Notes: a model not told the origin generated them from the sequence alone. Shown: positions 4,570-60,487, numbered from the stretch's first letter. The stretch: DNA of 64,000 bases from an uncultured Verrucomicrobiae bacterium (GCA_963737195.1 CAVTRW010000005.1:159982-223981), one strand, 5' to 3'. Made by a program: numbers and translations.

Positions 4570-5730
4570 ATGGCGTATCTCGATCAATTTTTCCAATTGC
4601 TGGTAAAGGAAGGTGCCTCCGACCTCCATATCGGCGAAGGACAGCCGCCCAAAATCCGCCGGCACGGCGATGTCATGCCCATTCGCACCGAATCGGTGAC
4701 GCACGAGGAAGCCATCGTAATGATGAGCGAAATTTGCGGCGCGAAAAATTGGGAACTATTCAAGGAACGCGGCGATCTCGACTTTGCCTACGAGATGGAT
4801 AAGGCGTCGCGTTTCCGCTGCAATTTCTTGAAACAGGCGAACGGATACGGGGCTGTCTTTCGTCTGATCCCGACAAAAATCGCGAGCATCGAAGAACTCG
4901 GAATCCCGCCAGTGGTGAAACAGTTTGCGCATTTGCGCGGTGGACTTGTTCTCGTGACCGGTCCGACAGGTTCGGGAAAATCGACGACGCTGGCAGCATT
5001 GATCGATTACATAAACGAGAAATTTGCGCGCCACATCGTGACGATCGAAGAACCAATCGAGTTCGTGCACGATAACAAGCGCAGCGTCATCACGCAGCGC
5101 GAAGTGCCAACTGATTCCGAGTCGTTCCCGATCGGATTGAAAGCGGCGTTGCGCGAAGATGCGGACATCGTCCTCGTCGGCGAGATGCGCGATCTCGAAA
5201 CCATTTCGCTGGCGCTGACCGCGGCCGAAACCGGTCTGCTTGTTTTCGGAACCCTGCACACGAACAACGCGCGCAAGACCGTCGATCGCATGATCGATGC
5301 ATTCCCCGCGGACAAACAACCGCAGGTCCGCACGATGCTGGCTAATTCACTGCGCGGTGTGCTGGCGCAACTGTTGTTGAAAAAAGCGGACGGCTCGGGG
5401 CGCGTCGCAGTGAATGAAATCCTGATCGCGAATTCAGCCGTGGCCGCGATCATTCGCGAAGGGGCTACGCAAAAACTTCAGGACGTGATCGTTGCCGGCA
5501 AAGGCGAGGGCATGCAATTTATGGACGACGCGATCTGGGCGTTGCTGCAGCAAGGGATCGTCTCGCCCCATGAAGCGTTCATGAAATCGATCGACAAAAA
5601 TCTTTTCAAAAAATTTCTGCCAGCGGAAGAACGAGACCTTAGCAATTCCGCCGGCGCCGCACCGGATGATGAGAAGCGCGTCCCCGGGAATTTTGTGAAG
5701 ATCACGCGGCGTGGAGGCAAACGTTTGTGA
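4570..5730 (+). CDS. PilT-family ATPase, second paralog (PilU-like)
   Basis: ATG at 4570 (MAYLDQFFQLLVKEGASDLHI). Walker A GPTGSGKSTT, DADIVLVGEMRD and GLLVFGTLHT are present. Confidence 0.9.
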   Translation: MAYLDQFFQLLVKEGASDLHIGEGQPPKIRRHGDVMPIRTESVTHEEAIVMMSEICGAKNWELFKERGDLDFAYEMDKASRFRCNFLKQANGYGAVFRLIPTKIASIEELGIPPVVKQFAHLRGGLVLVTGPTGSGKSTTLAALIDYINEKFARHIVTIEEPIEFVHDNKRSVITQREVPTDSESFPIGLKAALREDADIVLVGEMRDLETISLALTAAETGLLVFGTLHTNNARKTVDRMIDAFPADKQPQVRTMLANSLRGVLAQLLLKKADGSGRVAVNEILIANSAVAAIIREGATQKLQDVIVAGKGEGMQFMDDAIWALLQQGIVSPHEAFMKSIDKNLFKKFLPAEERDLSNSAGAAPDDEKRVPGNFVKITRRGGKRL

Positions 5731-6660: not shown

Positions 6661-6751
6661 GTCATCCCGAGCGCAAGCGAGGGACCTCACGATCTCAGTA
6701 GTGGTCGACCAAAGTTATGTCGTGAGGTCCCTCGCGTGCCCTGGGGATGAG
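6661..6751. repeat. palindromic element family A, copy 1 (GTCATCCCGAGCG-N5-GAGGGACCTCACG ... CGTGAGGTCCCTCGC ...)
   Basis: Inverted arms at about 6661-6691 and 6721-6751, lying between the convergent HNH and nuoN genes. Confidence 0.8.
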
Positions 6752-8205: not shown

Positions 8206-9678
8206 TTCGCGGCGAAAAAGCTGCGGAATGGCGGAGTGACGATCTGGACGAACGATTGCGGGAAAAATCCGACCGCGAGCAGGGCGGCAACGAGCAGGGT
8301 GATCGGCAACCGCAGCGAGTTGCGCAGATCAACAAGACCACTCCACTTGCTCTCCATTCGTCCCATGAAAACAGCGCGATAAGCGCGCAACATGTAGACG
8401 GCGGAAATCACGACTCCCCAGAGCGCGAGCGTCGTTGCCACTTGGAATGCGTCGAACCGCAACATGTTCGCGCCGCGCCTGAACGCGCCAAAGAAAATCA
8501 ATACTTCCCCGGCAAAATTCGCGAAGCCGGGCAAGCCGATGGCGGCAAACGCCGCGAGTCCGAAAACGAATCCGGCAAAAGGCATCGTCTTCGCGAGTCC
8601 GCCCAGGTCTTCGAAAACGAGTGTGCCCGTGCGGCGGCGCAGTTCACCAGTGATGCCGAAAAGAAGGGCGATCGAAAGTCCGTGCGCGAGCATGAGAATC
8701 GCGGCGCCATAGATCCCGATAATGTTTGCGCTGGCAATACCGAGAAAAATGTAGCCCATGTGCATGACGCTGGAATAACCGAGCATCCAATCGAGCCGTT
8801 TCTGCGCGATCGTGACAAGTCCGACGTAGATGATGTTCCCGAGCAACAGGACGATGAGAAGTTTGTTCCAATATTGCGCGCCGGCCGGCAGCAGTGGAAT
8901 GGCGAGACGCAGCAATCCGTAAAGTCCGAATTTTTTCAACACGCCCGCATGCAGCATCGCGGCCGGCGATGGCGCCGAGGCATATGCTTCCGGCGCCCAC
9001 GTATGAAATGGAAAAAGCGAAATGAGAATTCCGAAACCGATGAGCAACACCAAATAAATGTTTTGTTGTGCGCCGGCGCTGATTTGACCGGCGTTGGCGG
9101 CGGCTTGCAAAACGGCAAAGTCAAAACTGCGCGAGGCTCGCGGGCAAACTGCGATAGAGCAGGATCAAGCCGAGCAACAAAATGAAACTGCCGATCGCGA
9201 GGTAGATCGTGATTTTCCAAGCCGCGGTTTGCCGGTTGCCGGTTCCCCAAATTCCGATGAGCAGGAATGTCGGGATGAGTGCGAGCTCGTGGAACGCATA
9301 AAAGAAGAACAAGTCGATCGAAGCGAAAGCGCCGACTGCGCCCGCGGAAATGAAAAGCAGACAGGAGTAAAACGCGCCTTCGTTGCGTGAGATTTCCGCG
9401 GTGAACCAGATCGCGGCGAATGTGACGATCGCGGTCAGGAGCAGCATGATGAGACTCAAGCCGTCGATGCCGAGGGCAAAGCGCCAGCCCCAATCGGGAT
9501 TGATGGTCCACGCGGTGACGAATTGAAAACCAACAGCGCCTTTATCGAACCGGGAGAGGAGCAGCCCTGCGCCGATCAGCTCGATCGTGGCGGCGACGAT
9601 GGCAGTTCGTCGCGCGGGCGCGCCAAACAAAATCGCGATCGCGGCAACGATGGGGGCAAAAAGGATGAGCAATAGCAT
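8202..9678 (-). pseudogene. nuoM: NADH-quinone oxidoreductase subunit M, frame broken once as sequenced
   Basis: ORFs 9121..9678 (N-terminal 185 aa) and 8202..9110 (C-terminal 302 aa) are colinear with NuoM. The join ...LPASLAQF|DFAVLQAAANAG... requires skipping 1 nt in a T4 run at about 9121-9127. Confidence 0.85.
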
Positions 9679-11475
9679 CAGCGGAAAACGGTGAGGTAAA
9701 TGAGCCAGACAATGCCAAGACCGAAGAGAAAGGCGTAGGCCTGCAGGTTGCCGACCTGAAGGAGACGCAAGAGTGCGCCGGTTCCCCAGGTCGCGCCGCT
9801 CGCACCACGCACAGCGCCTGCATCAATGATCCAGCGATCGCAAAATGCCGCCAGACGCGAAAGAAAACCCTGCGTCCATTCAATCAGCCACTCATAGAAT
9901 TCGTCGAAGTAAAAACGGCGTCGCAAAATCGCGGCGTTGATCGGATCGGTTTCACGCGTGCGGTAGAGATAAAAAGCGAGTCCGCCCCCGAGAAGTAACG
10001 CAGTAATGGCAAGCAATGGGACAACAAAACTGACCGCTTGGTGTTCTGGCAGCGGAAGAAAACGGCGCGCAAAAAAACCAAAGCCGGCGATGAAAGACAT
10101 GAAAGCGAGAACAACCAGCGGAACGGTCATGACGGGCGGCGCTTCATCACAATGCTGAACCGCCTCCATTCGCGGCTTTCCGAAGAAAACAACGAGAACG
10201 AGGCGCATCATGTAGAACGCGGTCAGGAATGCGGTGAAAAGACCGAGCGCGAAAATCGCCGGGTTGCGTTCGTAAGCGATGGCGAGAATTGCGTCTTTGC
10301 TAAAAAATCCGCTGAACCCCGGGAAGCCGGTCAGCGCAAGCGTGCCGACACCGAATGTGAGAAATGTTATCTGCATTCGCCGGGCAAGCGCGCCCATTTT
10401 CCAAATGTTTTGCTCGTGATGCAGCATGATGATGATTGCACCCGCGCCGAGGAAGAGCAGCGCCTTGAAAAACGCGTGCGTGAAAAGGTGAAACATCGCC
10501 GCTTCGCCCGAAGCGAGACCGACGGCGGTAATCATGTAGCCGAGCTGCGAGATGGTGGAGTAGGCGAGAATTTTTTTTATGTCGTCCTGCTGCGTTGCGG
10601 TTAACGCGGCGATGACGGAGCTGATCGTTCCGATCCACGCGATGACGAGGAGCGCCGTCGGCGACAGTTGAATGAGAAAACCGACGCGCACCAGCATGTA
10701 AACACCCGCCGCCACCATCGTCGCGGCGTGGATCAAGGCAGAGATTGGTGTCGGACCCTCCATCGCGTCCGGCAACCAGACGTGCAGCGGAAATTGTGCG
10801 GACTTGCCGACGGCACCGCAAAAAATCAAAAGCGCGGTAACGGTCAGATATCCAGGGTGCGAGGTTAGCTTCGAGATGTTCGACGCGATCTCGGTAAAGA
10901 CGACGGAGCCAGTCGCAGTCCACGCCATCAAAATGCCGAGCATGAAACCGAAATCGCCGATGCGATTGGTGATGAAGGCTTTTTTGGCGGCATCGGCGGC
11001 GGCGTCGCGTTCGAACCAGTGCCCGATCAAAAGATAGGAGGCGACGCCGACCAGCTCCCAGAAGATGAACATCATCACGAAATTGTTCGCCAAGACGATG
11101 CCGAGCATGGCGAACATGAAGAAGGAGAGCGCGGCGAAGTAGCGCGACTGGCCTTTGTCTTCGCGCATATAGCCTAACGAGTAAATATGAATGAGCGCGC
11201 CGACGCCAGTAACCAGAACGAGCATTGTCTTGCTCAGACGATCGAGAACGAAAGCGAACGGAATATCGAGCATCGGCCAAAGATTAATCCAATGCGCCGT
11301 CGCGAGGATTTGAATTTGGATTGGCGAAGAGGATGCAACTTCCGACAAAACAAATGCAGACGGTTGCAACTGAAATCCAACTGCTGATGCGACGCGACCA
11401 ACTCGTGACCAAAACGATCGTAAAAGCCGCCGCGAGCGGCAGAAACAAAACCAGCCACGGCAAGTAATCGATCAT
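9678..11475 (-). pseudogene. nuoL: NADH-quinone oxidoreductase subunit L, frame broken once as sequenced
   Basis: ORF 11284..11475 (MIDYLPWLVLFLPLAAAF..., the NuoL N-terminus) and ORF 9678..11369 overlap in frames offset by 1 nt. The junction lies at about 11309-11330. Confidence 0.85.
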
Positions 11476-11501: not shown

Positions 11502-11615
11502 CCGGGGAGCGCGCCCGCCTCGGGCGCTACGCTTGGCGCCCTCGCCGAGCGCCTTCTTCTTCCGGCTTTTCGGCGAGGCGCCGAAAAGTGCGCCCGAGGC
11601 GGGCGCGCTCCCCGG
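11502..11615. repeat. palindromic element family C, copy 1 (CCGGGGAGCGCGCCCGCCTCGGGCGC ... GCGCCCGAGGCGGGCGCGCTCCCCGG)
   Basis: The 26-nt terminal inverted repeat encloses an inner hairpin cttttcggcgaggcgccgaaaag. The element lies between nuoL and nuoK. Confidence 0.85.
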
Positions 11616-11960: not shown

Positions 11961-12464
11961 TTATCGCAGCTCGCGTTTGCTCAGGACGATGACGCCGACC
12001 GTCGCCACCAGGACCAGAATTCCGATGATTTGAAATGGCAGATTGTAATGATTGAACAGGAGCAGTCCGACATTGCGAACATCGTCGATTTTGGAAATCG
12101 GCAATCGCGGAAACGGTTGTTCCGCCGCGCGCAACTTGTGCACGACGCAATAGATTTGGAAAAAAAGCGCCAATGAAACCAACGTCCCGCCGATAACGGC
12201 GACGACATTTATCTTGCGACGCTCCTCCGCGCGCAGATCGAGCAGCATGATGATGAAGAGGAACAAGACCATGACTGCGCCGGCGTAAACCAGCACCTGG
12301 ATCACGCCGATGAAAAACGCGTCGAGCATCATGAAAAGCGCCGCCAGGCCGAGAAAGGAAACGACGAGGCTGAGTGCGCTGGCGATTGGGCTGCGATTGA
12401 TGACGACGGCGGCCCCGAATCCGAGCATGGCTAACGAGAAGATCCAAAAAAGGATTGGCTGCAT
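11961..12464 (-). CDS. nuoJ: NADH-quinone oxidoreductase subunit J
   Basis: The 167-aa membrane subunit lies between nuoI and nuoK. Confidence 0.9.
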
Positions 12465-12500
12465 AGTTAGCCTAACGATAAATCCAACCGTTCAACGCAG

Positions 12501-12608
12501 GTCATCCTGAACGAAGTGAAGGACCTCACGATGACAGCTTCGATTGTCCGTGACCTTTGCGTGCCCATGCCAAGAGATCGTGAGGTCCCTCGCTGCGCTC
12601 GGGATGAC
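12501..12608. repeat. palindromic element family A, copy 2
   Basis: gtcatcctgaacgaagtgaaggacctcacg ... cgtgaggtccctcgctgcgctcgggatgac, lying between nuoI and nuoJ. Confidence 0.8.
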
Positions 12609-12613
12609 GGTGC

Positions 12614-13144
12614 TCATTTCTTCTCGTTCCATTTCAAGACAACGCCGTGCATGACACCGCCGATTTCGAGAAGTTTTTGTTTGTCGTGCACCATCTCCGC
12701 GCGCGTGAGACCGGTGATGGCGTAATCCTTGCGCAGAAAAATGGCCTGTTCCGGACAGACTTCCTCGCACATCCCGCAGTAGATGCAGCGAATCATGTCG
12801 ATGTCGAATTCGTCTGGATATTTTTCGACTTTGGCGAAACGGTCGGCCGGCGGAATTTCGCCGGGTACGATCTTGATCGCGCGCGGCGGACAAATGAATT
12901 CGCAAAGCTGACACGCGACGCAGCGCACGCGTCCGGATTCATCGCGCACCAGAGCGGGCGCGCCGCGATAATGGTCCGGCATGGCCGAATCCCATTTTTG
13001 CTCGGGATACTGCATCGTCACTTTCGTCCGCCCCAAGAGCATATTTGTGAAATGGCGCAGCGTGATGACCAGACCACTCACGATCGCGGGCAAATAAAGC
13101 CGCTCGAACCACGAAAGTTTTGGGCGCGGGACTGTGATCGCCAT
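12614..13144 (-). CDS. nuoI: NADH-quinone oxidoreductase subunit I (2x[4Fe-4S] ferredoxin-type)
   Basis: Start at MAITVPRPKLSW (13144). Two CxxCxxCxxxCP motifs are present (CVACQLCEFICP, CIYCGMCEEVCP). Confidence 0.9.
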   Translation of the reverse strand: MAITVPRPKLSWFERLYLPAIVSGLVITLRHFTNMLLGRTKVTMQYPEQKWDSAMPDHYRGAPALVRDESGRVRCVACQLCEFICPPRAIKIVPGEIPPADRFAKVEKYPDEFDIDMIRCIYCGMCEEVCPEQAIFLRKDYAITGLTRAEMVHDKQKLLEIGGVMHGVVLKWNEKK

Positions 13145-13146
13145 GT

Positions 13147-13560
13147 TTAATCTTCCGCTACCTCTACCTCTTCCTCTGCTTTGTCTCCGTAGACCGGCAT
13201 TTCCTCCGCAACTCGACATCCAAGCTGATCGAGCATGACGAATAGCATCTTCACGATCTCTTCGAGCTTGGCTTTGCCTTTTTCGATTGCTTTCTGTTCG
13301 CAGCATCCACGCGCGACGAAAAGATCAAGACATGCGGCTGATTCCAATGCTGAGCCGTGCGCGATTTGGAAAAATCGTGCGCGATCTCTTTGCGAAAACT
13401 TGCCATTACCCTCGGCAATATTCAGCGCGATGCTATCTCCAGCTCGTTCGAGCTGGTCGCGCGTTGAAGTCTTCTTTGAAATCGAATCGATGAGAAGTTG
13501 CGACCAAGCGGCAAACTCCAGAGCGCGTTGGTAAACTTTCAGTTTTTCGTGGTGGAACAT
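13147..13560 (-). CDS. four-helix-bundle protein (23S rRNA intervening-sequence protein family)
   Basis: The 137-aa protein reads MFHHEKLKVYQRALEF...DQLERAGDSIALNIAEGNGKFSQRDRARFFQIAHGSALE, the typical family signature. It is inserted between nuoH and nuoI. Confidence 0.8.
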   Translation of the reverse strand: MFHHEKLKVYQRALEFAAWSQLLIDSISKKTSTRDQLERAGDSIALNIAEGNGKFSQRDRARFFQIAHGSALESAACLDLFVARGCCEQKAIEKGKAKLEEIVKMLFVMLDQLGCRVAEEMPVYGDKAEEEVEVAED

Positions 13561-13594
13561 TGGAGATTAGAGGAAGAGGGAGAGGTAGAGGAAG
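13152..13594 (-). repeat. 26-nt inverted repeat pair bracketing the four-helix-bundle ORF (arms 13152-13177 and 13569-13594)
   Basis: cttccgctacctctacctcttcctct pairs with agaggaagagggagaggtagaggaag, with 24 of 26 positions complementary. Confidence 0.75.
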
Positions 13595-13595
13595 A

Positions 13596-14699
13596 TTATT
13601 GAGGAAAGTAAGCGATGATGAGCGCGGCGATGAAAATATTCACGAGCGCGATTTCGAAAAAGAAAACCCAACCGAGTCGCATGAGCTGGTCGTAACGAAA
13701 ACGCGGCAGCGTCCAGCGGACCCAGATAAAGAAGAAAAGCATCGCGATGAGTTTGGCGAAGAAGATTGCGATGTTGAATAGTCCGCCGGCGATGCCACGC
13801 CAGCCTGGAGCCGAGCCGTCGACGAGGACCCAGTGAAATTGACCGTGCCACGAAGGAATCGGCAGATGCCAGCCGCCAAGGAAAAGCGTGACCAGTACGG
13901 CCGAGCCGGTGATCATCGCGGCGTATTCGCCGAGGAAAAATAGACCGAACTTCATCGCGGCATATTCGGTGTGATAACCGCCGGCCAGTTCCTGTTCTGC
14001 TTCCGGCAAATCGAATGGGAGCCGGTTTGTTTCGGCAAAGATGGCGATCATGAAAACGAGAAACGAAATCCACATCGGGATGGTGAGGAGCCACTTCGCC
14101 GGGCTGGTCCAGTCGCCGAGAAACGGTGCGATCATCCAGCCGTGTTCGATCTGATAGCGCACCACACTCGTTAGGCGAAGCTGGCCGACGAGAAGAAAAA
14201 CCGGGATGACGGCCAGGCCTAACGACAGCTCGTAGGAAAGCATTTGCGACGACGAACGCACGCCGCCGAGGAACGGATACTTTGAATTTGATGACCAGCC
14301 GGCGAGCACGATGCCGTACACGCCTAACGAGGCGATGGCGAAAACATAAAGCACGCCGACGTTGATGTCGGCAATGACCATCGGAACGCCGAGTAGCGTG
14401 CTGCCGAACGGCACCACTGCGATCGTCATGATGGCCGGGATCATGGCGAGGCACGGCGCGAGGTAGTAGTAGAACTTGTTTACGTGCGCCGGCGTGAGTT
14501 GTTCTTTCAGCAAAAACTTCATGGCGTCGGCGATCGGTTGAAATAAACCCGCGGGTCCGACGCGATTCGGTCCGAGCCGATCCTGGATAAGCGCGCTTAC
14601 ACGTCGTTCCGCGTACACGCTGTAGGAAACGAGGGGGAGAATGACGACAAAGACGATGCCGATGATTTTGATCAGCGACGTGATGATGAGAAACGACAT
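13596..14699 (-). CDS. nuoH: NADH-quinone oxidoreductase subunit H
   Basis: Start at MSFLIITSLIKIIG (14699). This is the conserved polytopic NuoH/ND1-like protein. Confidence 0.9.
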   Translation of the reverse strand: MSFLIITSLIKIIGIVFVVILPLVSYSVYAERRVSALIQDRLGPNRVGPAGLFQPIADAMKFLLKEQLTPAHVNKFYYYLAPCLAMIPAIMTIAVVPFGSTLLGVPMVIADINVGVLYVFAIASLGVYGIVLAGWSSNSKYPFLGGVRSSSQMLSYELSLGLAVIPVFLLVGQLRLTSVVRYQIEHGWMIAPFLGDWTSPAKWLLTIPMWISFLVFMIAIFAETNRLPFDLPEAEQELAGGYHTEYAAMKFGLFFLGEYAAMITGSAVLVTLFLGGWHLPIPSWHGQFHWVLVDGSAPGWRGIAGGLFNIAIFFAKLIAMLFFFIWVRWTLPRFRYDQLMRLGWVFFFEIALVNIFIAALIIAYFPQ

Positions 14700-14712
14700 G
14701 GGACTCACTCTG

Positions 14713-14789
14713 AGGTAGGGATGCTTCTCCGAAGCGTCCATCGGCCGCGCCGAAGTGAAGTGGGACACCTCGGAGAGGCGTCCCTACCT
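14713..14789. repeat. palindromic element between nuoG and nuoH (aggtagggatgcttctccgaag ... cctcggagaggcgtccctacct)
   Basis: A roughly 22-nt imperfect inverted repeat is separated by about 33 nt. Confidence 0.6.
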
Positions 14790-14808
14790 GTAAATATGCC
14801 CGGGCACA

Positions 14809-16531
14809 TCACTTCGACGCTTTTTCTTTCTCGCGACGTTGCACCTTTTCCTTTGCTGGCTCACCCGATGGCGGGTCCGTTTCCAAATCCAAGATCTGCA
14901 CGCCGAGGTCGCCGATTTTGCTCAAATTGAGCCCGGCGAATTGCGGAATCGCCGCGCTCATTTCGCGAAACACATCTTCAATCGAATAAATGCCGTTCTG
15001 TTCGGTGCAGGCTTGAATCAAGTCGCGCAAAATTTCCCAATCGTCGCGCGCCGCACCGGGGCCAGCGACCGCGCGATTCAATCGCTGCAGCCGACCTTTG
15101 CGATTGATCATCGAACCGCGCTTCTCCGCGAAACCGAACGAAGGGAAAACCGCCGTCGCCAACGGCGTGGATTCGTTCTTCAGAATGTCCATGACAACAA
15201 AAGTGGGAAGCGCTGCGAGTTGTTCCGCAGTTATGCTCGAGCTTGAGTGGATCTTCGCCCAGCGCGATGAGCGCTCTGAGTTCGCCCGAAGCAATGTCAT
15301 GTGCAATTTGCGCAAGCTTCTCACCCGGCTCACTCGTTAGGCCGAGAATCAACTTCGCACCGTTTGTATTTGGATTGCGATCTTCGCTCAGCAGAATTTC
15401 ATCGCCCGGTCCGCTGCGCGGCAAAATGTCGAGCAGTTCGACGCCGAGAAGTTTTGCCAGTCGCGAAGTGAGCCAAAGTTCCTCGTTCGTCATGCGACCG
15501 GAGGCGAGGATCGCAATTTGTCGGCCCGCAAATTGTCGCAATTGCGTCGCGACATCGCGAATGACAGTTTCCCACGGACTCGGCGCGAGCTTGCCGTTAA
15601 TGAACATCTGCGGTTCGAGCAGACGTTCCGGCGCTTCAAGATAACCGAAATTGAGACGGCCGTAGTCGCACATCCAGCAGGAGTTAACGGCATCGTTTTC
15701 GCGCGGCGTCTGGCGGTAGATCACATCCTGGCGCGTGCCGATGAGTGTGTTGCAACCCGTCGCGCAACTGGTGCAGAAACTTTTCGTCTCTTTCAAAAAC
15801 CAGACGCGCATTTTGAAACGGAAATCCGAGGAGGTGAGCGCGCCGACGGGGCAAATGTCGACGGTGTTGAGCGAATAATTATTCTCCAGTCGCTTGCCCG
15901 GATGCGCGGTGAGAACGCTGTGGCTGCCGCGATCGACGAAGCCGAGGACATCATCGTGCACAATCTCCTGGCAGAAGCGAATGCAGCGCGAACACAAAAT
16001 GCAGCGCTCGTCGTCGAGCGTAACGCGCGGACCGAGTTCGACGTTCTTCGGTTTCTTGACCTTGTTTTCGAGAAAGCGCGAGGCCGCGTTCCCGTAGTCG
16101 ACGCTGAACTCCTGTAAACGACATTCACCCGCCTGATCGCATATCGGACAATCGAGCGGGTGATTGATGAGCAAAAACTCCATCACGCCGCGACGACATT
16201 CTTGCGCGAGCGGTGAATCGGTGCGCACGCCCATTCCTTCGGCGACATCCTGCGCGCAACAGATTTGCGGACGCGGCATCCAGTTGATGACCGGTTTACC
16301 GTCTGCGCCGAGCTCCGGTTTGCGATCGGGCCCCATGCGCGGCATGCCCATCTCGATCAAACACATGCGGCAGTTGCCGGGAGAGGTAAGCTTTTTGTGA
16401 TAGCAATAACGCGGCACAAAAAATCCTGCCTGCTCGCACGCCTCGATCACGCGTGTGCCTTTCGGAAATTGATGCCACGTCCCGTTAATCTGGACGTTGA
16501 ACAGTGGCGGAGAAGTTTGCTCGGCCATCAA
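14809..16531 (-). pseudogene. nuoG: NADH-quinone oxidoreductase subunit G, frame broken once as sequenced
   Basis: ORFs 14978..16531 and 14809..15333 carry the N-terminal 2Fe-2S/4Fe-4S Cys clusters. The join ...ALGEDPLKLE|ITAEQLAALPTFVVMD... lies near 15235-15240. Confidence 0.85.
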
Positions 16532-20419: not shown

Positions 20420-20507
20420 AATTGGGCGTTCGTTTATGCTCGCGAGTCGAGCATTGGCCGTGCAAGCGCAAAGATTAAGTGGGACGCGACGTGGCGCGTT
20501 CATCGTT

Positions 20508-20602
20508 GTCACCCCGAACGTAGTGAGGGACCTCACGAAGATACGGTCTGGTGTGGTGGACCAGTAGTGAATCGTGAGGTCCCTCGCTTTGCTCGGGATG
20601 GC
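20508..20602. repeat. palindromic element family A, copy 3
   Basis: gtcaccccgaacgtagtgagggacctcacg ... cgtgaggtccctcgctttgctcgggatggc, in the divergent nuoD/fabD intergenic region. Confidence 0.8.
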
Positions 20603-20660
20603 AAGCATGGTTCCCGACTATGCTCGCTCTTGAATGGAAATACGGCTAACTAAGGAACCA

Positions 20661-22100: not shown

Positions 22101-22104
22101 AGAA

Positions 22105-22200
22105 AACATCGAACATCCAACATCGAACGCCGAACGCCGAACGCGGAAGGATTTCACTTCGATGTTCGATGTTCGATGTTGGACGTTCGATGTTGGATGC
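22105..22200. repeat. long hairpin built from CGAAC / GTTCG units between the yqeY-like gene and ispD
   Basis: catccaacatcgaacg pairs perfectly with cgttcgatgttggatg. The inner arms are (cgaacgc)n versus (gttcgat)n. Confidence 0.7.
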
Positions 22201-22218
22201 TGGATCTTTCTCAATGGC

Positions 22219-33304: not shown

Positions 33305-33874
33305 TCATTTTGTTTCGACAAGACGCAGCCGAAAACGCGCGTCGAATTTGCCGCGATTGTGCGCGCGGCAACAGGCAAGACATGCGACGGCGCGCCGAAT
33401 CCGACGCACGCGCGCGAAGGACTCGCGGCATCGCGGACATTTGTAAACGAAACGGCGGGCGCGCCGGCTGACCGGAAACGGCAACTCATGACAACGCGGT
33501 TCGCCGGGGATTCCAAGATCGCGACACGCGAGCCGCCATTCGACGCCATGCGGAGCAATGCGCCGGTTTCCTGATCGCGCCTGGGCGAGCAAATGCGCCA
33601 GCTCGTGCCGCAAAGTTTGCTCGATCTCCGCTGCGCCGTGTTCGTGCAAACGCGGGTTCAACGAGATGAGCTTTCGCCGCCAATCAGCGCGTCCGGCGCA
33701 AGTTTTCAGACGTGGATTCCATTCCACGTGCACCTGCCGTGCGGTTCTTATTGCGCCGTGATGGCGCAACAGTTTGCGCGCTGTCGACTCAAGCGCAGCG
33801 TCCTTCCCTCGTTGCGGAAAACGGGAAAAACTGCGGACTTCGAAATCGAGGTGAAGCTGTTCAAGCAACAGCAT
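33305..33874 (-). CDS. SprT-like zinc metalloprotease domain protein
   Basis: The motif HELAHLLA is followed by a C-terminal Cys4 ribbon (CPRC...CLAC). Confidence 0.7.
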   Translation of the reverse strand: MLLLEQLHLDFEVRSFSRFPQRGKDAALESTARKLLRHHGAIRTARQVHVEWNPRLKTCAGRADWRRKLISLNPRLHEHGAAEIEQTLRHELAHLLAQARSGNRRIAPHGVEWRLACRDLGIPGEPRCHELPFPVSRRARRFVYKCPRCRESFARVRRIRRAVACLACCRAHNRGKFDARFRLRLVETK

Positions 33875-35007
33875 ACTGACTTGCTTTATGCTTCGTCAGG
33901 CGATCGAGGACGCGGCCAACGACGGCGCCGGCCGAGTCGATATCTTCGGTGGTAGTTTGTTTGCCTAACGAAAATCGAACGGCCGAGCTGGCGCGTTCCG
34001 TCGAGAGACCCATCGCGAGCAGCACGTGCGACGCGGTGACCGAACCCACCATGCAGGCCGAACCGCTCGACGCGCACACACCTTCCAAATCCAGCGCCAT
34101 GAGCAGCGTTTCCGAGCTGAGTCCGCGAAAACTGATATTCAACGTGTTCGCGAGGCGGTGATCGGTGTCTCCGTTCTGCACTGCGTCTGGAAAACTTTGC
34201 GCAATTTGTCTCCACAAATCGTCACGCAGCTTCTGCTCCCTGATCTGCTCTTGCTCGTTAGGCAAAAATTCCGCTGCCGCCGCCATTCCAGCGATCGCGG
34301 CAACGTTTTCCGTCCCGGGTCGGCGCTCGTTTTCATGGGAACCGCCGAACTGGATCGCTTCAATCGGAATGCCGGCGCGCAAATAGAGAAATCCCGCGCC
34401 TTTTGGTCCGTAAAATTTGTGAGCGGCAAAACTGGCGGCGTCGACGAGCGCGCTGTCGGTTTCGATCTTGCCAAACGATTGCACCATGTCGCTGTGCAAA
34501 AGCACTCCGCGTTCGCGGCAGATTTTTGAGATCTCGCGCATCGGCTGGATGACACCGGTCTCGTTATTCGCCGTCATGATCGAAACAAGCGCGGTATCGT
34601 CGCGGATGGAATCGGCAAGATGATCGAGATCAACAATGCCATTCTCGGAAACATCTAGCCATCGTCACCTCGAATTCTTCACGTTTTTCCAAATGCTCAA
34701 CCGCGTTGAGCACGGCGTGATGTTCCGTTTTGCAACTGATGACGTGTCGCGACGGTCCGCTACGCGCGAGGCCGAGCACGGCGAGATTGCATGATTCCGT
34801 GCCGCCGCTCGTAAAAATAATTTCGTGCGGCTTCGCGTGAATCAGCCCGGCGATTTTATCGCGCGCATCATCGATCGCCGCGCGCGCGACTCGTCCGGCT
34901 GCATGCACACTCGATGGATTTCCAAAATCGCGTTGCAAATACGGCAACATCGCCTCGCGCGCTTCATCGCAAAGCGGCGTCGTCGCGTTGTAATCGAGAT
35001 AAATCAT
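33861..35007 (-). pseudogene. cysteine desulfurase (NifS/IscS family), frame broken once as sequenced
   Basis: ORFs 34630..35007 and 33861..34577 are colinear. The join ...EEFEVT|WLDVSENGIVDLDHLADSIRDDTALVSIMTANNETG... lies near 34662. The motifs SAHKFYGPKG and SSGSAC are present. Confidence 0.85.
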
Positions 35008-35018
35008 CGGCCGCTTTT

Positions 35019-35099
35019 CTTACTCTTTCTCATGCTCATGCTCTCGATTCCGGAAGGAGCAAGAGCAAGAGCATGAGCATGAGCATGACAATGAGTAAG
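35019..35099. repeat. hairpin built from CATGCT / AGCATG units between cysE and the desulfurase gene
   Basis: cttactctttctcatgctcatgctct pairs with agagcatgagcatgagcatgacaatgagtaag. Confidence 0.7.
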
Positions 35100-35104
35100 A
35101 GAAT

Positions 35105-36020
35105 TTATTCCGCGAATGTATCGGTGCGCACTTCGACCTTGTGCGGCCGTTTCTGCACAATCTCGATTCGCTTTTCCTCGTAATAAACGAGCGAGTTCTT
35201 CGGCACACTTTGCGTGAGGAAAACATTTGCCCCGATGGTCGAGCCCGCGCCGATCACGGTATCGCCGCCCATCACACTCGTGCCGGCGTAAATGGTCACG
35301 TTGTCCTCGACCGTGGGATGCCGCTTTTTCCCGCGCAGGGCACGGCCAGCTCCAAGTGTCTTGGCGATGAAGGAAACGCCTTGGTACAGTCTTACGTTCG
35401 ACCCGATCTCGGTCGTTTCGCCGATGACCACACCCGTGCCGTGGTCGATAAAAAAATGCGAACCGATTCGCGCGCCGGGATGGATATCGATGCCGGTGCG
35501 GCTGTGCGCCCATTCCGCCATGATGCGTGGGATGATTGGCACCTTCTCGTAGAGCACATGCGCCATGCGATAAATCGCGATCGCTTCCAGCGATGGATAG
35601 GCGAGAATGATCTCCTCGAAACTTTGCGCCGCCGGATCGCCTTCATATGCCGCGTCGATATCGGTCCAAAGTAGTCGGCGGACTTCGGGCAACTGCGCGG
35701 TGAAGAATTCCAAAATTTTATCCACCTTCTCCTGTGTTTCCTGACTGGCCGGATAATCGCCGAGGCTTTTGCAAAATTCCGGCTTGAGCAATCCGTGCAA
35801 TTTGCGCACGCGACTGCGCGTCACATCAGGCAGATCGGTCGAGTCGACCAATGATTCGCCGCGAAAGCCCGGAAACATCAGACTCATCAATTCCGCGCAG
35901 GCTGACTTCGATCGCGCCGCGCGAGGGAAGGTTGGCGGCGGCGGCAAGATAATTGATGCCGCCGGTCTCGCTGTAAGTCTGAAGCAACTCATCGATTGCG
36001 TCGCGTGGCTTTGTGTCCAT
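35105..36020 (-). pseudogene. cysE: serine O-acetyltransferase (long form), frame broken once as sequenced
   Basis: The N-terminus MDTKPRDAIDELLQTYSETGG...AIEVSLR (frame of ORF 35826..36056) joins ELMSLMFPGFRGE... (ORF 35105..36052) near 35894. The hexapeptide-repeat C-terminus is present. Confidence 0.8.
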
Positions 36021-36073
36021 CGCGACAAAGGTACGCGACGCACCCCGCGCAATCAAAAACGAAAGTGACGAAA

Positions 36074-36918: not shown

Positions 36919-37031
36919 CGGGGAGCGCGCCCGCCCTCGGGCGCTCATTTCGGCGCCCCCGCCGAAATGCCCCAAAAAGTTCGCGATGGCGAGGGCGCCA
37001 TCGCCAGCGCCCGAGGGCGGGCGCGCTCCCC
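36919..37031. repeat. palindromic element family C, copy 2
   Basis: The termini match copies 1 and 3 (ccggggagcgcgcccgccctcgggcgc ... gcgcccgagggcgggcgcgctcccc). The interior differs. Confidence 0.8.
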
Positions 37032-42984: not shown

Positions 42985-43107
42985 GGGTAGCGCACGCGTC
43001 TCGCGATCGCGAACTTCTCTAACGCATCGCGATTCGTCATTGAACCCTACAGAAAAGTCTGTTGCGGCGAGACGCCGCAACCAACACGCGAGACGCGTGC
43101 GCTACCC
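42985..43107. repeat. palindromic element with a perfect 21-bp terminal inverted repeat
   Basis: gggtagcgcacgcgtctcgcg (42985-43005) pairs with cgcgagacgcgtgcgctaccc (43087-43107). The inner hairpin is gttgcggcgagacgccgcaac. Confidence 0.7.
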
Positions 43108-47869: not shown

Positions 47870-47938
47870 CCGCGCGCCTTCTCTTCTTCGGCAACAAAAG
47901 CCGCTCATTTCTAGCGGAACGTCGCAAAAAAGAACGTT

Positions 47939-48018
47939 GGTCATCCCGAGCGAACGCGAGGGACCTCACGACATCAGGCAAGACGTTCGTGAGGTCCCTC
48001 GCTCCGCTCGGGATGACC
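47939..48018. repeat. palindromic element family A, copy 5 (short loop)
   Basis: ggtcatcccgagcgaacgcgagggacctcacg ... cgtgaggtccctcgctccgctcgggatgacc. Confidence 0.85.
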
Positions 48019-48047
48019 AACGCATGATTGCCACTTCGAACAACTCG

Positions 48048-49793: not shown

Positions 49794-49800
49794 TGAATTC

Positions 49801-49912
49801 TGGGGAGCGCGCCCGCCCTCGGGCGCCGCGCTCGGCGCCCTCGCCGAGCGCTCTCTCTTCTGCTTTTCGGCGAGGCGCCGAAAAGAGCGCCCGAGGGCGG
49901 GCGCGCTCCCCA
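49801..49912. repeat. palindromic element family C, copy 3
   Basis: The element is nearly identical in layout and interior to copy 1, with the same inner hairpin cttttcggcgaggcgccgaaaag. Confidence 0.85.
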
Positions 49913-49925
49913 GACAAAATGACAC

Positions 49926-60383: not shown

Positions 60384-60487
60384 GGAACATGGGTCTCTGG
60401 CCTGTGCGCCCAGCGGACATTCTGTCCGCTGCTGATCGGTGGCGGAGTAAAACTCCGCTGGGCGCACAGACCAGAGGTCTATGTTCC
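60384..60487. repeat. palindromic element between shc and the SOD gene (34-nt imperfect inverted repeat)
   Basis: ggaacatgggtctctggcctgtgcgcccagcgga pairs with tccgctgggcgcacagaccagaggtctatgttcc. The inner 17 bp are perfect. Confidence 0.7.

Follow-up and report, generated by a model that had tools for sequence, protein, structure and literature searches.

What is a gene of the four-helix-bundle (FHB) family, first met inside intervening sequences (IVSs) of 23S rRNA, doing in a complex I operon? The question is raised by a 64,000-nucleotide stretch of DNA from an uncultured Verrucomicrobiae bacterium (GCA_963737195.1, CAVTRW010000005.1:159982-223981; hereafter the window), in which a 137-aa open reading frame (ORF) of this kind sits between nuoH and nuoI, all three on the minus strand. 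Comparison of the locus with its relatives showed that the ORF is enclosed by a long inverted repeat, that this stem-closed architecture is a conserved trait of this branch of the PF05635 family, and that FHB cassettes, as well as ORF-less hairpins that share their arms, lodge where the stop codon of one housekeeping gene meets the start codon of the next, co-directional one. We lean, by a modest amount, towards reading the element as an IVS-type palindromic "lodger" cassette: a promoterless FHB gene whose leader is the reverse complement of its own acidic-tail codons, with a closing stem of ~30 bp. To our knowledge, the role and mobility of rRNA IVSs and of S23p/PF05635 ORFs have been an open question since 1990-93; the stem-closed IVS architecture is now also seen in mRNA, where cistrons of core operons meet (complex I, glycolysis, gyrase).

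A stem-enclosed gene between nuoH and nuoI

The FHB ORF (13147-13560, ATG start, TAA stop) lies where an earlier note on this DNA had placed it, inside the complex I operon, 35 nt from the stop codon of the upstream gene nuoH (13596-14768; TAA at 13598-13596) and 2 nt from the start codon of the downstream gene nuoI (12614-13144; ATG at 13144-13142). It is bracketed by an inverted repeat of 30 nt, complementary at 28 positions, in which 13569-13598 pairs with 13148-13177; the earlier note had given arms of 26 nt matching at 24 positions, with coordinates and pairing that were right but incomplete. The RNA 5' arm, UAAUCUUCCUCUACCUCUCCCUCUUCCUCU, is pyrimidine-rich with a 6-nt period (TCTTCC/TCTACC/TCTCCC), and its first three bases are the nuoH stop codon, which forms the base of the stem. 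Between this arm and the ORF start codon is an 8-nt spacer, AAUCUCCA (13561-13568; sequence read directly), in which no purine-rich Shine-Dalgarno-like motif was found. The RNA 3' arm, AGAGGAAGAGGUAGAGGUAGCGGAAGAUUA, is purine-rich, consists of in-frame GAN-NNN codon pairs, and terminates within the FHB stop codon, 3 nt ahead of the nuoI AUG; the outer ends of the stem abut the nuoH stop codon and the nuoI start codon. Translation of the 3' arm region gives ...AEEEVEVAED*, confirming the acidic tail EEEVEVAED that had been read from it.

The two arms reach a gapless complementarity score of 24, against 7.3 ± 1.1 (maximum, 11) in 100 shuffles of the upstream region. When the nuoH-nuoI transcript region was folded (13130-13610, minus strand), the enclosing stem was closed in both the minimum-free-energy and the centroid structure (-168.4 kcal/mol, z = -4.1; none of 100 shuffles was as good). 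The likeness to rRNA IVSs drawn in the earlier note holds for the terminal stem of ~30 bp that encloses the whole insert, but not for its setting, which is nuoH and nuoI rather than rRNA. No promoter-like site was found in or around the cassette, no convincing terminator was tied to its arms, and an Rfam scan of 12000-15000 returned nothing relevant, the sole match being a chance snoRNA (E = 0.95). The 64-kb window holds no second FHB copy.

The assignment of the ORF to the rRNA-IVS-type family (Avd/S23p-like) is agreed upon by sequence profiles and structure prediction. It matches PF05635 23S_rRNA_IVP (E = 1e-23, 84 bits; cutoff, 33.8) and TIGR02436 "four helix bundle protein" (E = 4.3e-22, 78.4 bits; cutoff, 24). 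An AlphaFold2 model derived from 26 orthologs (pLDDT, 81.6; pTM, 0.73) has four helices, at residues 2-26, 32-51, 57-84, and 89-112 (encoded by 13225-13557), and a tail that is disordered from residue 118 (residues 118-137, 13150-13209), in which a conserved Y/F-G motif is followed by the acidic run. The best Foldseek matches to this model were the S23p-family pentamers 2rld and 2gsc (E = 3e-5; TM score, 0.82-0.92 on the target), followed by 4dwl and 8ub7, structures of the Avd protein of diversity-generating retroelements (DGRs; TM score, ~0.8); phmmer also related the sequence to 2gsc (E = 2.9e-4). The residues R39, S43, N47, and E50 of the motif R39-x3-S43-x3-N47-x2-E50 are invariant across the 26 orthologs; the conserved family motif is GxxRxxxSxxxNxxE (Lin 2006 and Zhang 2013, quoted in PMC3936711).

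At nuoH-nuoI, the insertion is old. All ten close orthologs (75-86% identity) lie directly upstream of nuoI, nine of them with nuoH upstream, and position and spacing are fixed among them; ~120 additional protein clusters with 78-90% identity to the FHB protein were found in metagenomes. Measured against the window copy, FHB has a dN of 0.09-0.16 at saturated dS, compared with 0.12-0.20 for NuoH and 0.08-0.11 for NuoI; FHB evolves as slowly as NuoH and NuoI, with dN/dS of ~0.1 or less in every close relative found. By these comparisons, the insertion is vertically inherited, with its ORF under strong purifying selection, and is thus neither a recent nor a decaying selfish element. In one locus, L005, the FHB tail is frameshifted and the repeat is retained. 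In the exceptional tenth locus (L002:1-3411; CAVYXA010000005.1), a cassette of the nuoH-nuoI type and nuoI follow gap-[FHB cassette]-pgk and a 279-aa ORF instead of nuoH, an arrangement that is either a rearrangement with a breakpoint at the cassette or a chimeric assembly.

More distant Chthoniobacterales, reached via their NuoH homologs, present a different picture of the same junction. The earlier note had pointed to related genomes for empty and filled forms, and filled, empty, and ORF-less states were all found. The junction is empty in four genomes (L082 to L085; 5, 6, 1, and 1 nt). In L081 it holds an ORF-less hairpin of 118 nt whose arms match those of the genome's own FHB cassette at nuoEF-nuoG, located 2.9 kb upstream. 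Over the 34 nt of the 5' arm the two are identical, their 3' arms differ by a single substitution and a single inserted base, and the interiors are unrelated. In L087 it holds a purine-first hairpin of 94 nt, and nuoEF-nuoG carries a GxxExxY/PDDEXK_3 gene with arms of the same kind. The NuoH proteins of L081, L087, and L084 are 92-95% identical yet their junction states differ, which indicates that occupancy turns over quickly in this clade.

The bracket and its junctions across the family

A scan of one genome per species yielded 80 loci with a related protein, of which 78 were usable for a test that compared the 90 nt before the start codon with a stretch made up of the final 100 nt of the ORF and the 50 nt that follow it, with shuffles made for each locus. 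Relatives keep the flanking complementarity, whose absence from them the earlier note had named as a refutation: the bracket score is at least 13 in 62 of the 78 loci, while shuffle maxima were mostly 9-12 (up to 14). Since protein clustering at 65% identity collapsed into one large cluster, independent contexts were defined by flanking genes; the bracketing repeat is present in 17 of the 28 distinct contexts, which span several phyla. Copies of the gene with other flanking stems, which the earlier note had suggested looking for, were found across these contexts, with arm sequences that differ and nevertheless stay complementary: the unit is (TCTTCC)n at nuoH-nuoI and (TCTTGC)n, (TCGTAA)n, (TCATGA)n, or (TCGTGC)n elsewhere. 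Arms paired with their own partners have a mean score of 21.6, compared with 10.2 when arms are swapped across loci. The same is seen among orthologous gap-pgk cassettes (self, 22.2; cross, 14.8), where none of 10,000 permutations reached the self mean. Three loci (L048, L029, and L018) have perfect arms of 35-45 bp in which the order of the units is irregular.

The arms follow a simple code. They are 6-nt periodic, with a 5' unit T-C-N-T-N-N whose complement is read in the 3' arm as the codon pair GAN-NAN. The sequence GA falls at codon positions 1 and 2 in 41 of the 44 loci whose 3' arm lies inside the ORF, giving acidic dipeptide-repeat tails such as EQEQEQ, EHEHDY, and DQDQDQ, with EEEVEVAED as the window's version. 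Where the 3' arm lies mostly past the stop codon (14 loci), it is in phase in 11, the stop itself being a unit (GAG-TAA or GAT-TAA). Counted by context, 12 of 14 pyrimidine-first contexts share the frame. The 3' arm thus encodes an acidic dipeptide-repeat tail, and in the leader the 5' arm repeats this coding sequence in antisense. The arms are more than a by-product of coding, because the repeat is kept in L005 despite the frameshifted tail, because some arms sit wholly past the stop codon, and because ORF-less hairpins retain the same units. A few loci, mostly Bacteroidota- or Ignavibacteria-like (L015, L060, L072, and L076), have the purine-rich arm on the 5' side, and some FHB genes, instead of a single bracket, have a separate hexamer hairpin on each side or nested hairpins; loci with a 5' purine arm or with separate or nested hairpins include L077 (2693-2895 and 3368-3591), L054 and L056 (~2893-2992), L070, L072, and L076.

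The cassettes fit closely between their neighbors. The median distance from the upstream stop codon to the 5' arm is 8 nt (interquartile range [IQR], 2-18), that from the 3' arm to the downstream start codon is 7 nt (IQR, 3-15), and the FHB stop often overlaps the start of the next gene as ATGA. By a crude gene call, 54 of 74 cassettes are co-oriented with both neighbors. The host junctions include GAPDH-PGK (18 loci), nuoEF-nuoG, gyrB/parE-gyrA/parC, dipeptidase/beta-CASP RNase, and nuoH-nuoI. A natural pair of alleles is provided by nuoF-nuoG, which in the window is a TGATG overlap (around 16528-16531) and in L061 and L028 reads TGA, arm, ORF, arm, ATG; this empty counterpart shows that both arms are part of the inserted DNA and that insertion was exactly between stop and start. 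At the arm borders of 62 loci, target-site duplications showed no excess over chance, with lengths of 0, 1, and 2 at 35, 23, and 4 loci and control fractions of 0.67, 0.24, and 0.07, and no transposase or integrase adjoins the cassettes examined. The suggestion that the element is a self-contained cassette able to lodge in mRNA operons as well as in rRNA is borne out by the arms that differ with context, by the filled, empty, and solo states, and by the nuoF-nuoG pair.

Hairpins with the same kind of arms also stand alone. In the window, an ORF-less hexamer-repeat hairpin occupies 35015-35103 (minus strand), with arms of 29 nt each (35015-35043 and 35075-35103; 90% complementary by gapless alignment) and 31 nt between them. 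It fits between the stop codon of a hexapeptide-transferase gene (35105-36052) and the ATG of a class-V aminotransferase gene (35007), folds at -43.8 kcal/mol (z = -5.4), and is built of TCTTAC/TCATGC/TCTTGC units, an arm type that matches the nuoEF-nuoG FHB cassettes of L028 and L061; no relatives of this site were present among the fetched loci. The window, to which this census was limited, accordingly has a single full cassette and a single solo hairpin, whose arm units differ. A second solo hairpin is conserved just after pgk in six gap-pgk loci (L031, L032, L055, L058, L065, and L080; ~4635-4735), where the purine arm reads as an FHB tail, ...DHEQEHEHDYE (IDHEQEHEHDYE). By its sequence, this hairpin is probably a cassette that lost its ORF body.

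Competing readings of the stem and a proposed mechanism

Several observations weigh against a cassette defined by its RNA stem. In 11 of the 28 contexts, no bracket was found within the windows searched. Among the nuoH-nuoI orthologs, no locus-specific covariation is detectable (self, 16.8; cross-genome, 15.7), because all of their arms are low-complexity and (TCTTCC)n-like. RNA helices maintained for long usually favor G·U, and the 136 mismatched arm positions comprise 24 G·U, 23 A·C, and 89 others of transversion type, clustered at variable hexamer positions; this spectrum fits recent mutation and DNA-level homogenization of the arms, not the wobble of a long-selected RNA helix. [quoted passage not shown] Finally, RNA pairing, cleavage, and coupling at nuoH-nuoI are all putative.

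Some of this points to another explanation, doubtful in our estimate but to be taken seriously, in which the arms serve mainly as signals in the DNA (terminal inverted repeats, or a hairpin or cruciform for a recombinase, nuclease, or reverse transcriptase acting in trans to move the cassette), the RNA stem follows as a by-product, and gene conversion keeps the arms complementary. The equal numbers of G·U and A·C mismatches, the perfect 35-45-bp arms of young copies, and the L081 solo hairpin, whose arms match an FHB cassette 2.9 kb away around an unrelated interior, would all follow from it; so would the fast turnover among L081, L087, and L084 and the presence at the same junction of a second ORF family, GxxExxY, with a PD-(D/E)XK nuclease fold and a bracket of its own. 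Against it, target-site duplications are at chance level, the arms vary from context to context, unlike the ends bound by a transposase, and the cassettes examined have no transposase or integrase beside them; the strong sense orientation, the tight fit to stop and start codons, and a nuoH-nuoI copy that has stayed in place since genomes with saturated dS diverged also speak against it.

That stability might instead reflect domestication, with the gene benefiting its host in the Udaeobacter nuo operon (e.g., as an assembly or regulatory factor) and the stem being an ordinary intercistronic regulatory structure. The 75-86% identity, the dN/dS of ~0.1 or less at the pace of NuoH and NuoI in every close relative found, and the fixed position and spacing agree with this explanation, which we nonetheless regard as improbable: the same family, with its bracket, is found in unrelated operons (gap-pgk, gyrB-gyrA, and dipeptidase/beta-CASP RNase), the nuoH-nuoI junction is empty in the complex I operons of related Chthoniobacterales, L081 and L087 have a hairpin alone there, L002 has the cassette and nuoI behind gap-pgk and a further ORF instead of nuoH, and L005 keeps the repeat despite its frameshifted tail. 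Least credible of all is coincidence, i.e., an acidic, GA-rich tail that happens to match a low-complexity, CU-rich leader. Both window arms are indeed of low complexity, and those of the nuoH-nuoI orthologs are almost fully interchangeable, but coincidence is effectively refuted by the composition-preserving shuffles (24 against a maximum of 11), the cross-locus pairing, and the gap-pgk permutations; in other contexts, both arms switch together to different units (TCGTAA, TCATGA, and TCTTGC), and ORF-less hairpins keep their arms with no coding need.

If the element is, as we favor, an IVS-type lodger cassette, it would be transcribed within the nuo mRNA by read-through from the nuo promoter, and the leader would pair there with the tail codons as in rRNA IVSs. 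The stem would make an insertion of 450 nt tolerable in an essential operon by keeping the nuoH stop codon beside the nuoI start codon. It may at the same time mask the nuoI initiation region, which could become accessible through ribosomes that terminate on nuoH or that translate the FHB tail (translational coupling) or, alternatively, be released by RNase III cutting the duplex. The earlier note had proposed cleavage of the nuo transcript between nuoH and nuoI; stem ends placed at the neighbors' stop and start codons fit preserved translational coupling at least as well. A coupling-preserving design would explain how stem-closed inserts survive at overlapping stop/start junctions of essential operons. 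The FHB protein, putatively an Avd-like nucleic-acid-binding pentamer with an acidic tail, may serve the maintenance or spread of the element rather than complex I. If the stem does keep translational coupling or direct RNase III cuts, such cassettes would be unrecognized regulators of operon stoichiometry in abundant soil bacteria, e.g., Candidatus Udaeobacter.

Relation to known systems and other inserts

The closest known counterparts are the 23S rRNA IVSs with an S23p/PF05635 ORF of Leptospira, Coxiella, Brucella, and others. They share with the nuoH-nuoI cassette the protein family, an ORF in the sense of the host transcript, a terminal inverted-repeat stem of ~28-30 bp that closes the whole insert, the coexistence of versions with and without the ORF, and short tandem repeats in the arm region, which are heptamers in Coxiella (PMC4990558) and hexamers here. 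In the Coxiella IVS, RNase III cuts a 28-bp terminal stem in its middle, short repeats stand in tandem in the 5' region, and the S23p ORF is in the sense orientation (PMC4990558). RNase III excision has been demonstrated for rRNA IVSs; for the nuoH-nuoI cassette, it is putative. The host of the cassette, however, is an mRNA cistron junction and not helix 25 or 45 of 23S rRNA, its 3' arm is translated as an in-frame acidic tail, and strong purifying selection acts on its ORF, in contrast to that of Coxiella, which is decaying and probably not translated. We rejected the element as a true rRNA IVS, as it is not inserted in an rRNA gene.

As inverted-repeat elements between genes, the cassettes also resemble Correia/NEMIS elements, other MITEs (miniature inverted-repeat transposable elements), and repetitive extragenic palindrome-type sequences, which are transcribed together with their neighbors into RNA that forms long hairpins; in mRNAs, Correia hairpins are RNase III substrates and alter mRNA levels (PMC10969869). 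The ORF-less solo hairpins of the cassette family look like MITE-style derivatives. Unlike in MITEs, no target-site duplication, conserved terminal sequence, or parent insertion sequence or transposase was found for the cassettes, hexamers locked to the reading frame make up the arms, the complete element includes a conserved gene that is not a transposase, and insertion is precisely at stop/start junctions, whereas MITEs lie in AT-rich spacers.

DGR Avd proteins share the homologous four-helix-bundle fold (4dwl and 8ub7; TM score, ~0.8), and PF05635 is the Pfam match of Avd-like proteins (PMC10053308). The sequence identity between FHB and Avd is nevertheless only ~10%, and the FHB gene has nuoH and nuoI as neighbors, with the nuo operon around it and no adjacent reverse transcriptase or template/variable repeat, for which reason the element was rejected as a DGR. 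We know of no report of Avd genes bracketed by a stem. Like integron gene cassettes, the FHB cassettes are units of one gene that lack a promoter, are tightly packed and co-oriented, and have an imperfect inverted repeat; in integrons, however, attC lies downstream of the ORF and cassettes form arrays beside the intI integrase, whereas the FHB repeat brackets the ORF of a single unit in the nuo operon, and this identification was likewise rejected.

A 23S_rRNA_IVP gene has been described in a cas operon, in the order cmr3, 86 nt, gene, 6 nt, cmr2 (Zhang et al. 2013, PMC3936711). There, too, a PF05635 gene is wedged between co-directional operon genes with very short spacers, but such genes were read in that report as Cas-associated, and no flanking repeat or cassette nature was described (PMC3936711). 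Our results suggest that the cas-operon PF05635 genes are lodgers of the same kind as the nuoH-nuoI cassette, and such genes should not be read as functional partners of their host operon, be it cas or nuo, nor annotated as ordinary hypothetical genes. The literature we consulted, mostly outside subscription journals, describes PF05635-type genes in rRNA IVSs, as DGR Avd, and in cas operons; it contains no operon-junction stem-bracketed cassettes and no description of a hexamer-periodic, frame-locked bracket, of junction-specific lodging, or of ORF-less derivatives. Stem-enclosed cassettes at gene junctions of housekeeping operons are apparently a widespread and undescribed class. Natural filled, solo-hairpin, and empty alleles, together with the frame-locked arm code, make the old IVS question comparative and experimentally testable, and they link the enigmatic PF05635 family to core operons of abundant soil bacteria, where the system is polymorphic and tractable.

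Brackets are not confined to FHB genes. Small GxxExxY/PDDEXK_3 genes (TIGR04256, PF13366) have an inverted-repeat bracket in 69 of 78 loci (metagenome loci L088-L167; L087:742-1304). Their 5' arm is purine-rich and coincides with the ATG and the first ~28 nt of the ORF (ATGAATCAGGAAAGCAGGAAAGCAGGAAA), has an 8-nt period, and encodes MNQESRKAGK; the 3' arm begins 0-4 nt past the stop codon, and the genes lie a few nucleotides from their neighbors' stop and start codons. The L087 gene occupies nuoEF-nuoG, the junction that is taken by an FHB cassette in L081. We speculate, and put this forward only tentatively, that PF05635 FHB and GxxExxY PD-(D/E)XK genes are cargo or mobility factors of one widespread class of stem-closed cassettes, found in rRNA helices and at stop/start junctions of essential operons across several phyla and giving rise to ORF-less derivatives. 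Such cassettes might spread without target duplication (e.g., by an RNA- or hairpin-DNA-mediated route involving an Avd-like protein) and might persist because coupling is kept and imprecise loss is damaging.

The window contains other palindromes as well. Two further families of ~100 nt, "TCATCCCGAGCG..GAGGGACCTCACGA" and "GGGGAGCGCGCCCGCCCTCGGGCGC", are found at 12501-12608 and 11502-11615 and also at 6662-6750, 20501-20609, 47935-48022, 36920-37031, and 49799-49914. One copy of each is inside the nuo operon, at nuoI-nuoJ and nuoK-nuoL, so that stem-loop inserts are present at three more or less consecutive nuo junctions. A heptamer-periodic hairpin, (AACATCG)n/(CGATGTT)n, at 22104-22209 recalls the heptamers of the Coxiella IVS, and two more long hairpins are at 60384-60487 and 42985-43107. 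In a Chthoniobacterales contig (L082:5765-6295), a 176-aa ORF with a signal-peptide-like N terminus and no Pfam match lies between nuoI and nuoJ and is another kind of lodger in the nuo operon. In the window, nuoG (14809-16531) and the class-V aminotransferase gene (33861-35007) are each split into two overlapping or adjacent ORFs, as nuoL (9678-11475) probably is; these are frameshifts, from either assembly errors or pseudogenes, and NuoG is split in L085, too.

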